Assembly: GCA_016432285.1 (NCBI GenBank)
Contig: CP066682.1
Location: 352,933-416,932 of the forward strand
Length of the DNA: 64,000 bases
Source of the DNA: Candidatus Kaiserbacteria bacterium
GTDB taxonomy: Bacteria > Patescibacteriota > Minisyncoccia > Phycocordibacterales > UBA2100
Direction of reading: 5' to 3'
Made by a program: the position numbers and the translations under genes. This document shows, in pieces, positions 34,125-34,598 of the stretch; the stretch's first letter is position 1, and each line of letters starts with the position of its first letter. The notes beneath the pieces were generated by a model, which was given only the letters and a program-made list of their open reading frames with translations, did not search any database and was not told the origin of the DNA.

Positions 34125-34367
34125 ATGGCTACAAAACAAAACGTAACTATTTACTCGACCCCGACCTGCCACTTCTGCCACATGGCGAAGGACTTTTTTG
34201 CCGCCAACAAGATTCAGTTCACCGACTACAACGTTGCGACCGATCTCGAAAAGCGCAAAGAGATGGTAGAAAAGAGCGGTCAGATGGGCGTGCCCGTCAT
34301 CACGATCGGCAAAGAGACCATCGTCGGCTACGACGAGGATCGCCTCAAGGAGCTGCTCGCAGTCTAG
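34125..34367 (+). CDS. Glutaredoxin-like protein (NrdH/YruB type)
   Basis: IYSTPTCHFCHMAKDFF...GVPVITIGKETIVGYDEDRLKELL. Confidence 0.85.
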   Translation: MATKQNVTIYSTPTCHFCHMAKDFFAANKIQFTDYNVATDLEKRKEMVEKSGQMGVPVITIGKETIVGYDEDRLKELLAV

Positions 34368-34543
34368 TGCCCTCGGCAGGAATCTCCCTCGACTCTCGGC
34401 TCGCCGTCGCTCGCCTCGGTCTGGGCACCGCCTCGCTGCTCGGCCTGCTGGCCTCGCATCGCTCCGGCGTTCGATTCCTGCACGCGCCATGCAGCGGCAC
34501 GGCGCTCTCGATCACTTGCTTCGCAGTGCCCTCGGCAGGAATC
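34366..34543 (-). mobile_element. ORF-less 140-bp structured insertion (module 2) bracketed by a 19-bp direct repeat of the tRNA-Arg 3' end
   Basis: AGTGCCCTCGGCAGGAATC occurs at 34366-34384 and 34525-34543. A hairpin lies at 34484-34505. There is a 13-bp perfect inverted copy of the tRNA T-loop plus 3' T-stem (34469-34481 vs 34535-47). Confidence 0.7.
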
Positions 34544-34598
34544 GAACCCACATCTCTCCCTTAGGACGGGATAGCTCTATCCATTGAGCTACGAGGGC
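34527..34598 (-). tRNA. tRNA-Arg (anticodon CCT), CCA not encoded
   Basis: Acceptor GCCCTCG/CGAGGGC, anticodon loop GTCCTAA, T-arm GTGGGTTCGATTCCTGC. TATAGT (complement of 34608-34613) lies 9 nt upstream. Confidence 0.85.

Follow-up and report, generated by a model that had tools for sequence, protein, structure and literature searches.

The segment from the T-loop to the 3' end is the textbook sublocation of integrase crossover in tRNA genes, casposons make duplications of 14-15 bp at tRNA 3' ends, and the IS1202 group makes duplications of 15-28 bp. Guide-bearing elements, among them group II introns (EBS/IBS), IS200/IS605, IS110/IS1111 with their bridge or seek RNA and the R2 ribozyme, share with the module described here a hairpin-adjacent segment complementary to the insertion site and a likely co-transcription with a highly expressed stable-RNA gene; P1 of the R2 retrotransposon ribozyme, for instance, can pair with the upstream 28S rRNA in the co-transcript. 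In Patescibacteria, tRNA group I introns have been described at position 35/36 in the anticodon loop, no group II introns were reported in the phylum, and the module is not mentioned (PMC13011429). No description of this element was found in the open-access papers searched.

The window, that is the whole stretch of 64,000 nucleotides that was analysed, is a chromosome segment of about 58% G+C full of housekeeping genes. An intact tRNA-Arg(CCT) gene is located on its minus strand, at 34526-34598 according to ARAGORN or 34527-34598 according to the Rfam tRNA model (56.4 bits). The 19-mer AGTGCCCTCGGCAGGAATC was present with 100% identity at 34366-34384 and at 34525-34543, the two copies lying 159 nt apart from start to start with 140 bp in between. 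Read on the tRNA strand it is GATTCCTGCCGAGGGCACT and consists of T-loop positions 57-60, the 3' T-stem, the 3' acceptor strand, the discriminator A and 2 more nt. The proximal direct repeat, DR1 (34525-34543, minus strand), thus covers tRNA positions 57-73 plus CT, corresponding to the last 18 nt of the tRNA-Arg(CCT) gene and 1 flanking nt, and matches the distal direct repeat, DR2 (34366-34384, minus strand), at 19 of 19 positions. DR2 abuts the stop codon of the glutaredoxin gene (34125-34367, plus strand; ORF and Pfam Glutaredoxin), which is flanking context outside the element, and overlaps the last two bases (AG) of its TAG. Between the repeats, GTTCGATTCCTGC (34469-34481, plus strand) is 100% complementary to 34535-34547, corresponding to tRNA positions 53-65, and it is also complementary over 9 nt to the distal repeat copy (34376-34384). 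The first-pass annotation had described the 19-mer duplication with its coordinates and tRNA span, a distal copy 140 bp downstream that overlaps the glutaredoxin TAG by 2 nt, and a perfect 13-nt inverted copy of the T-arm reaching 4 nt past the 19-mer; our repeat search reproduced all of these. A chance origin of the repeats was excluded by dinucleotide shuffles of 34300-34650, where a direct repeat of at least 19 nt was obtained in 0 of 2000 shuffles (maximum 14 nt) and a separated inverted repeat of at least 13 nt in 0 of 500 (maximum 12 nt).

Syntenic genomes were then searched for with the neighbouring LUD-domain protein. Five Patescibacteria genomes were found (L004 to L007 and L043, with a LUD protein identity of 67-72%), all exhibiting the gene order tRNA-Gly(CCC), LUD, glutaredoxin, tRNA-Arg(CCT), small ORF and tRNA-Phe. 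In L007, from Kaiserbacteria, the tRNA-Arg(CCT) gene has the orientation seen in the window, with its 3' end lying directly against the glutaredoxin stop; the junction there, GTGTAG followed by TGCCCTCGTCCGGAATCGG, is kept in the window at the distal repeat. The CT beyond the discriminator, found in both window repeat copies, is the native flank in L007. Because the arrangement of L007 is uninterrupted, the 140 bp at 34385-34524 together with one copy of the 19-mer are extra DNA, and the predicted empty junction of the window site is TAGTGCCCTCGGCAGGAATCGAACCC. This comparative search for an empty site establishes that the 140 bp are, as had been proposed, inserted DNA, delimited by the duplicated tRNA 3' end. 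L004 carries a different insert at the same place of tRNA-Arg. Logan contigs of the same organism contain the identical insert, one of them ending 52 nt inside it. An orientation flip of the tRNA-Arg gene was also seen in relatives.

On the minus strand, the Arg insert begins with a spacer X (GCGAAGCAAGTGATCGAGA, 34506-34524), which contains a GCGAAG..GTGA motif common to other copies and a degenerate anti-acceptor, AGTGATCGAG; a clean anti-acceptor arm is absent from this copy. In the minimum free energy (MFE) fold, the spacer pairs through AGUG/CACU and UCG/CGA with the end of DR2. It is followed on the same strand by the hairpin P1 (GCGCCGTGC-CGCT-GCATGGCGC, 34484-34505), in which 9 of 9 pairs covary across copies, and by the arm A' (GCAGGAATCGAAC, 34469-34481), the perfect reverse complement of tRNA positions 53-65, whose first 9 nt form the stem P0 with DR2 as its 3' strand. 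The 5' half of the core (34430-34468, minus strand) comprises an invariant GCCGGAGC box, a variable hairpin P2 and an invariant GCGAGGC box, and the 3' half (34385-34429, minus strand) is a long hairpin, P3, whose region shares 94% identity over 53 nt with a copy from the Yonathbacteria genome L024. Folded alone, the Arg module has an MFE of -77.3 kcal/mol (z -3.7), with P1, P0, P2, P3 and a weak outer stem predicted. The annotation had further suggested that A' could pair either with the tRNA T-arm (13 bp) or with the distal repeat (9 bp); both alternative pairings are physically possible and appear in MFE folds. No terminator-like site was found between tRNA-Arg and the module. A coding insert was considered and rejected, the peptides encoded by the ORFs at 34367-34564 (plus strand) and 34345-34551 (minus strand) not being conserved from the Arg to the Phe copy; gene callers leave the gap empty and the sequence variation within the family is of the base-pair type.

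BLAST within the window returned no further copy of the Arg insert, the family being visible only by profile or covariance search. Further copies were collected by BLAST, by a pattern scan of metagenome contigs and with an nhmmer profile, and then with a covariance model built from 13 copies. The model gave 25 matches at E ≤ 1e-5 in the window and the Patescibacteria or metagenome contigs searched, and the sample consists of these 25 copies only, drawn from one biased pattern scan. The pattern AGCGAGGCNGTGCCNAGACCGA had no match in viral contigs. A looser pattern gave mostly chance matches in metagenome and viral contigs, about a dozen loci proving real after nhmmer and covariance filtering, and L189, the sole 'viral' contig with copies, carries ordinary cellular genes. 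With 122.6 bits for the Arg insert and 95.3 bits for a second copy in the same window, the membership of the insert in a family, already put forward from the window alone, is firmly supported.

The second copy, at tRNA-Phe (35000-35074, plus strand), occupies 35055-35305 on the plus strand and has the same architecture. Its direct repeats (35055-35073 and 35287-35305, 19/19 identical) enclose, all on the plus strand, an extra hairpin block named 'module-1' (35079-35160), the anti-acceptor GCCCAGA (35161-35167), P1 (35169-35190), A' (35193-35204), which is a 12-nt inverted T-arm copy whose one mismatch is a G-T pair, and the core, from 35206. The distance from A' to the distal repeat is 82 nt, compared with 84 nt in the Arg copy. 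A third, weaker copy (40.4 bits; 19577-19691, plus strand) is located upstream of the intact tRNA-Ser(GGA) gene (19725-19812), within a duplicated fragment from the 5' side of this gene.

The association with tRNA genes extends to the whole sample. At least 17 of the 25 matches follow the 3' end of a tRNA called by ARAGORN on the same strand, either directly or as members of tandem arrays, with at least 11 kinds of host tRNA (Arg-CCT, Arg-GCG, Phe, Asp, Ser-GGA, Ser-CGA, Lys, Glu, two Met, Leu and Asn); one more copy, in L124, follows a tRNA cut by the contig end, and seven matches have no called tRNA beside them. An orphan copy away from tRNAs occurs in L135, and tandem arrays exist, as in L097 where they are bounded by the same repeat. 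The named hosts are MAGs of Nomurabacteria, Minisyncoccia and Yonathbacteria, most metagenome hosts being without taxonomic assignment. The hosts have a G+C content of 36-65%, nearly always lower than that of the modules they carry. The cores are 85-94% identical behind unrelated tRNAs. At tRNA-Ser(GGA), the modules of L059 are downstream of the gene whereas the window module is upstream, within the duplicated 5' fragment; gains at the same tRNA have occurred independently in related genomes.

Three parts recur in all copies: the hairpin P1, the core and an arm that complements either the T-arm of the host tRNA or the local target. On the tRNA strand the order is proximal repeat, spacer, P1, A', GCCGGAGC box, P2, GCGAGGC box, P3 and distal repeat. 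The spacer often contains a motif resembling GAACGAAGTGAAA or GCGAAGCAAGTGA, P1 has 8-10 bp with a tetraloop that is usually CTGC, A' begins 0-2 nt after P1, and the P2 hairpin between the GCCGGAGC and GCGAGGC boxes is variable. The core, from GCCGGAGC to the end of P3, measures 79-88 nt in 13 of 18 copies. Most copies end in a direct copy of the target, with the distal repeat immediately after P3; L010 has no DR2.

The segment just 5' of the GCCGGAGC box repeatedly matches the T-arm of the upstream tRNA in reverse complement. Among the 15 tRNA-adjacent copies that were tabulated, 8 have an A' that is the exact reverse complement, over 10-13 nt, of the host T-loop and 3' T-stem: besides the GCAGGAATCGAAC of Arg, these are Ser-GGA (GAGATTCGAAC), Lys (GTAGGATTCGAA), Glu (GGGAATCGAAC), Asp in L075 (GGGACTTGAA), Met (CGGGATTTGCAC and AAGGACTTGCAC) and Asn. 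A' matches at 11 of 12 positions in both Phe copies and at 12 of 13 in the Asp copy of L010 (GTCGGGACTTGAA), and the match is imperfect or gapped in the Ser-CGA and Leu copies. In L108 and L068, the duplication lies beyond the tRNA end and A' is complementary to that flank instead. The stem P0, formed by A' and the start of the distal repeat, averages -12.2 kcal/mol for matched pairs compared with -6.7 kcal/mol when the arm and the repeat come from different copies. The recurrence of the inverted T-arm copy across the family confirms that, as the first description of the locus held, the duplication alone does not account for it, and shows it to be a feature of its own that appears systematically.

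A second arm, located 5' of P1, was observed in many copies. It complements the 3' strand of the acceptor and in some cases the native flank or terminator as well; it is seen, for example, as GCCCAGA at 35161-35167 of the window Phe copy and in L059, L089, L010, L075 and L097. The inverted arms complement the 3' strand perfectly and do not reproduce the 5' acceptor strand of the tRNA, as can be told from the G-U pairs of tRNA-Asp and tRNA-Lys, where the two would differ. Many copies can fold these arms and the distal repeat into a three-way, tRNA-like junction. Similarities with tRNA-like structures (the tmRNA domain, YrlA and viral TLS) include the acceptor-like stem, the central arm P1 and a T-like stem ending in the host discriminator; unlike in those structures, the module stems are perfect over 16-20 bp, not 7 + 5 bp, the core replaces the T-loop and there is no Rfam match.

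We considered whether such inverted arms could arise by local rearrangement, where template switching at hairpins would give a direct-inverted-direct triplication plus filler with no dedicated element. The succession of direct copy, hairpin, inverted copy and, further on, direct copy is the signature of this process at short inverted repeats, and in L010, L089 and L024 the inverted copy continues through the native terminator palindrome. The 'filler', however, is a conserved, covarying core of about 85 nt at 25 places across many genomes, which leaves no room for an independent origin each time. As a full explanation template switching is contradicted by this observation and we regard it as very improbable, although it may act as a step creating the target copies. 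The idea that the inverted arm is a decayed plus-strand tRNA-Arg left after an orientation flip was rejected, since the arm is at the same place in every family member.

The length of the direct repeats differs between copies. Perfect repeats of 19-20 nt are found in the Arg and Phe copies of the window, in L004 and in L090, and L124 has a repeat of 18 nt. That of L059 measures 23 nt with one mismatch and includes the flank CAGAT, the 17-mer of L108 is entirely flank, and the repeat of L068 has 7 nt, giving a range of 7 to 23 nt at tRNA 3' ends; a related insert at lepA has 37 nt. In L059, L108 and L068 the identity enters non-tRNA flank, so that the repeats look like copied target and not like a tRNA fragment brought in by the element.

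This bears on the 'att-like' label first given to the duplication, which stands in so far as the tRNA 3' end is duplicated, but it should not be taken as evidence for an integrase-mediated reading, as the identity enters non-tRNA flank and no integrase was found. The insert would, in such a reading, be the scar or miniature of a classical integrative element (phage, ICE or CIME), whose tyrosine integrase acted in the T-loop on an attP-borne tRNA 3' end, the 19-mers being the attL and attR cores. The module resembles integrase att sites and CIMEs in its repeat from the T-loop to the tRNA 3' end, which meets one defining feature of these sites (19 nt, from position 57 to the discriminator plus 2 nt), in a tRNA left intact on the element-proximal side and in tandem arrays bounded by the repeat, those of L097 being similar to tandem islands at tRNA or tmRNA genes (for example PMC3146451). 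It differs from them by the lack of integrase and cargo and by a conserved folded core with an internal inverted target copy. Two further features expected of such sites were not met: neither an integrase gene nor a full-length relative with one was found, and the near-identical cores sit at at least 11 tRNA species, each with its own repeat, instead of at one cognate tRNA per lineage with identity limited to the element-borne segment. The insert holds no integrase and no ORF, and searches of 30 window ORFs and 20 ORFs neighbouring other copies gave no mobile-element gene (transposase, integrase, reverse transcriptase or Cas1), the genes next to the copies being ordinary housekeeping genes. 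The uniform size and order of the modules also do not resemble ragged deletion remnants. BLAST against phage records gave no match and against plasmid records only a chance Streptomyces match, and bona fide viral contigs gave none. We therefore consider an integrase scar to be quite unlikely.

Transposon-type systems were compared in the same way. With MITEs and casposons the module shares its small size, non-autonomous nature, multiple copies, long target duplication and the use of tRNA 3' ends as a safe harbour. In contrast to them, it has no terminal inverted repeats of its own, its ends being GCGAAG... and ...GTCGAGGGA, the duplication is variable and the sole inverted repeat is target sequence. 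The target-site duplication expected of MITEs and DDE elements is thus present, as seen from the repeats and the L007 empty site, and their own terminal inverted repeats with a fixed duplication are not; because the repeat length varies, a transposase with a fixed stagger does not fit. Compared with that of casposons, the duplication is longer and of variable length; terminal inverted repeats are lacking, and neither Cas1 nor DDE was found in the scanned ORFs, a search that does not cover a trans-acting Cas1 elsewhere in the genome.

The guide-bearing systems differ from the module by having no long target duplication, a guide that is fixed per lineage and an enzyme that is encoded or adjacent, and none of their Rfam or Pfam signatures was found here. 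For IS110/IS1111, an adjacent recombinase gene is missing, a 19-bp duplication is present, and the direct and inverted target copies of the module overlap, not representing two target halves. For IS200/IS605 (PATE) and TnpB/IscB guides, hairpins are present with a long duplication, no Rfam match at E ≤ 10 and no TnpA or TnpB in the window. Group I and II introns do not fit, with the tRNA intact upstream, no match to RF00028 or RF00029 and a core of only about 85 nt; a group I guide sequence was likewise rejected, the core being too small and without Rfam match. Only tRNAs reach threshold in Rfam 15, and over 34300-35450 the permissive matches of a scan at E ≤ 10 are unrelated and far below the cut-offs. 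Three other candidates were set aside: a retroviral-type primer-binding site, as the junctions lack CCA; an HDV-like ribozyme with P1 made of DR1 and A', as the helix order is unsuitable; and an integron attC or Xer-type hairpin site, as the end of the core does not contain the sequence found 5' of the crossover.

The common fold is supported by covariation. In the 25 aligned copies, 93% of the cells are standard pairs and changes occur on both sides in 31 of 34 pairs; none of 500 shuffles matched any observed covariation measure, and when partners were slid by 1-3 columns as a control only 30-42% of the cells paired. The covariance alignment is fitted to the model and its pair counts lean towards the model; an independent RNAalifold analysis of a MAFFT alignment gave covariation in 29 of 34 pairs. 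Between the invariant boxes, GCC:GGC and GC:GC pairs flank a small GGA/GA internal loop, in which tandem G-A pairs are possible by inference. As judged from the alignment alone, the wobble cells (27 of the G-U type against 7 of the A-C type) point to the tRNA-sense strand as the one that is folded. In L004, the orthologous Phe insert has a 20-nt repeat and 90% identity over 122 nt with the window copy. Since DR2 and A' are unchanged between these Phe copies in spite of the 10% divergence and P1 differs by compensating changes, the comparison argues for a Phe structure kept under selection and not merely decaying.

These data are also what could be expected of a vertically kept, cis-acting tRNA trailer, a maturation or quality-control switch or a processing stalk in which A' sequesters the T-arm or the decoy repeat, with copies arising by rare duplication and co-evolution and no active mobile element. 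Long-term conservation with compensatory changes and constant DR2 and A' in the Phe copies, wobble pairs favouring the tRNA strand, the absence of a terminator ahead of the module, a G+C content above that of the host, as for stable RNAs, and the presence of both alternative pairings in folds all agree with it. It does not account for the empty site in L007, nor for the different inserts at the same tRNA when the window is compared with L059 (tRNA-Ser) or with L004 (tRNA-Arg). Cores that are 85-94% identical at unrelated tRNAs in hosts of 36-65% G+C, the tandem arrays and the orphan copy of L135 are also hard to reconcile with vertical descent, and each new tRNA would require 13-22 nt of arm to be rematched by point mutation, which is implausible. 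On balance we hold a purely vertical trailer to be unlikely.

We favour, with a probability of roughly 0.55, the reading that the Arg insert is a copy of a family of non-coding, non-autonomous structured modules at tRNA 3' ends, for which the target has been duplicated. The family is apparently undescribed and present at many Patescibacteria tRNA genes. The descriptive conclusions given above are solid and the mechanistic ones are hypotheses. Modules of about 120-160 nt would be seated at the segment from the T-loop to the 3' end of tRNA genes, the 19-mer being the presumed duplicated insertion target. The single-copy tRNA would stay intact because the duplicated stretch spans position 57 to just past the discriminator, while the downstream repeat copy would stay at its old position against the glutaredoxin stop. 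A' and the distal repeat (P0) are predicted to close the core, and in many copies the second arm 5' of P1 would pair with the acceptor part of the repeat to complete the three-way, tRNA-like junction. The module is probably read through from the tRNA promoter and would fold as RNA, an inference for which no transcript was seen; P0 and the acceptor-like stem might then form a processing stalk, or A' might act as a switch by pairing in turn with the T-arm (13 bp) and with DR2 (9 bp).

Mobility of these modules is inferred only from their presence and absence and from their spread across tRNAs and genomes; no enzyme, free or circular form, or transcript was seen. Copies would be spread by a trans-acting enzyme encoded elsewhere, and the direct and inverted target copies could be templated from the target during insertion. 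To our knowledge, there is no mechanism that yields both a direct and an internal inverted target copy. Simple copying does not account for the position of P1 within the inverted copy, seen in many modules. We can propose only tentatively, as a possibility that we rate well below the module family itself, a new class of mobile RNA-structured element of genome-reduced Patescibacteria, in which the recognition arm and the closing stem would be rewritten from the target tRNA gene at each insertion. Such a self-reprogramming, guide-bearing element would use the T-loop-to-3'-end segment as a safe harbour and the tRNA promoter for its expression, and its enzyme is unidentified.

In practical terms, the module repeats interrupt assemblies and may be confused with prophage att sites. 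If our reading is true, tiny Patescibacteria genomes carry a widespread structured RNA or mobile family missed by curated RNA libraries. It also raises the question of whether tRNA maturation is modulated by trailers able to pair with the T-arm. A natural insertion with arms always matching the host gene would, if true, bear on the evolution of programmable, guide-dependent DNA insertion.

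A third, weaker copy of the module, the small folded non-coding insert family found at tRNA 3' ends, was found in the window at 19577-19691 with a score of 40.4 bits. It is laid out as GGAGGGTTCG followed by the module and then by CGCATAGTGGGCTTGT, and it interrupts a promoter-proximal tRNA-Ser(GGA) fragment. Since an intact tRNA-Ser(GGA) gene (19725-19812) follows 48 nt after the interrupted fragment, the duplication at this locus covers the 5' portion of the tRNA. In the related tRNA-Ser locus L059, no module copy lies upstream and two lie downstream.

A different duplication was observed at lepA, where the first 37 nt from the start (30577) are present again 170 nt upstream (30407-30443) with 86% identity, the duplication and its intervening block spanning 30407-30613. 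The 133 bp separating the two copies hold a hairpin block, module-1 (GAGAACCCACGGTTCTC ... CACGGGAAAACTACAGTTTTCCCGACCCCTTTC), which is also present in the tRNA-Phe insert of the window (35079-35160). Related blocks were found among the syntenic Patescibacteria genomes, upstream of lepA in L005 (2782-2880), at the tRNA-Arg of L004 and, in inverted orientation and flanked by a 16-nt repeat, 3' of tRNA-Phe in L006 (8173-8237).

The tRNA-Arg(CCT) and tRNA-Gly(CCC) genes (window 34526-34598 and 32904-32975) keep the same neighbouring genes in the window, L004-L007 and L043, and they lie in L005, L006 and L043 on the strand opposite to that of the window, L004 and L007. Judged from gene position and strand alone, individual tRNA genes are inverted in place among these syntenic genomes. 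The T-loop of tRNA-Phe in the window (35000-35074) and in L004 (7481-7554) reads TGCAAAT, with a G instead of the near-universal U55, and the acceptor and T stems of this tRNA-Phe are unlike those of the tRNA-Phe of L005-L007. Two tRNA-Met genes of L075, another locus with module copies, have similar T-loops (TGCAAAT and TGCAAGT).

Elsewhere in the window, both D-Ala-D-Ala ligase domains were matched in two stretches each in a 787-aa ORF (1479-3845), which is thus an apparent tandem or fused Ddl. The 1380-aa ORF at 12680-16822 contains internal tandem repeats (e.g. 15132-15228/15231-15327 and 14371-14540) and gave no Pfam match. A bacterial type A RNase P RNA (24922-25348, 117 bits) is 427 nt long compared to the 367 positions of the model, so that an insertion within this RNA is probable.

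In L097, tRNA-Ser(CGA) is followed by three modules in tandem (4556-5120, minus strand), every module being bounded by G(TTC)GAATCCTCCCGCTTCCG and units 1 and 2 being identical. The Logan contig from the window's organism (L002) ends 52 nt into the tRNA-Arg insert, equivalent to window ~34436, just where the P3 segment with 94% identity to the Yonathbacteria copy (L024) ends; this break points either to further occurrences of the P3 half in the genome or to a strain difference. In L075, comparison of the module at 1548-1687 with the copies at 2216-2359 and 3240-3379 revealed a mosaic, with P1 and the arm identical to the tRNA-Asp copy and the P3 half identical to a tRNA-Met copy, which indicates, as far as sequence can tell, that module copies recombine with one another inside one genome.
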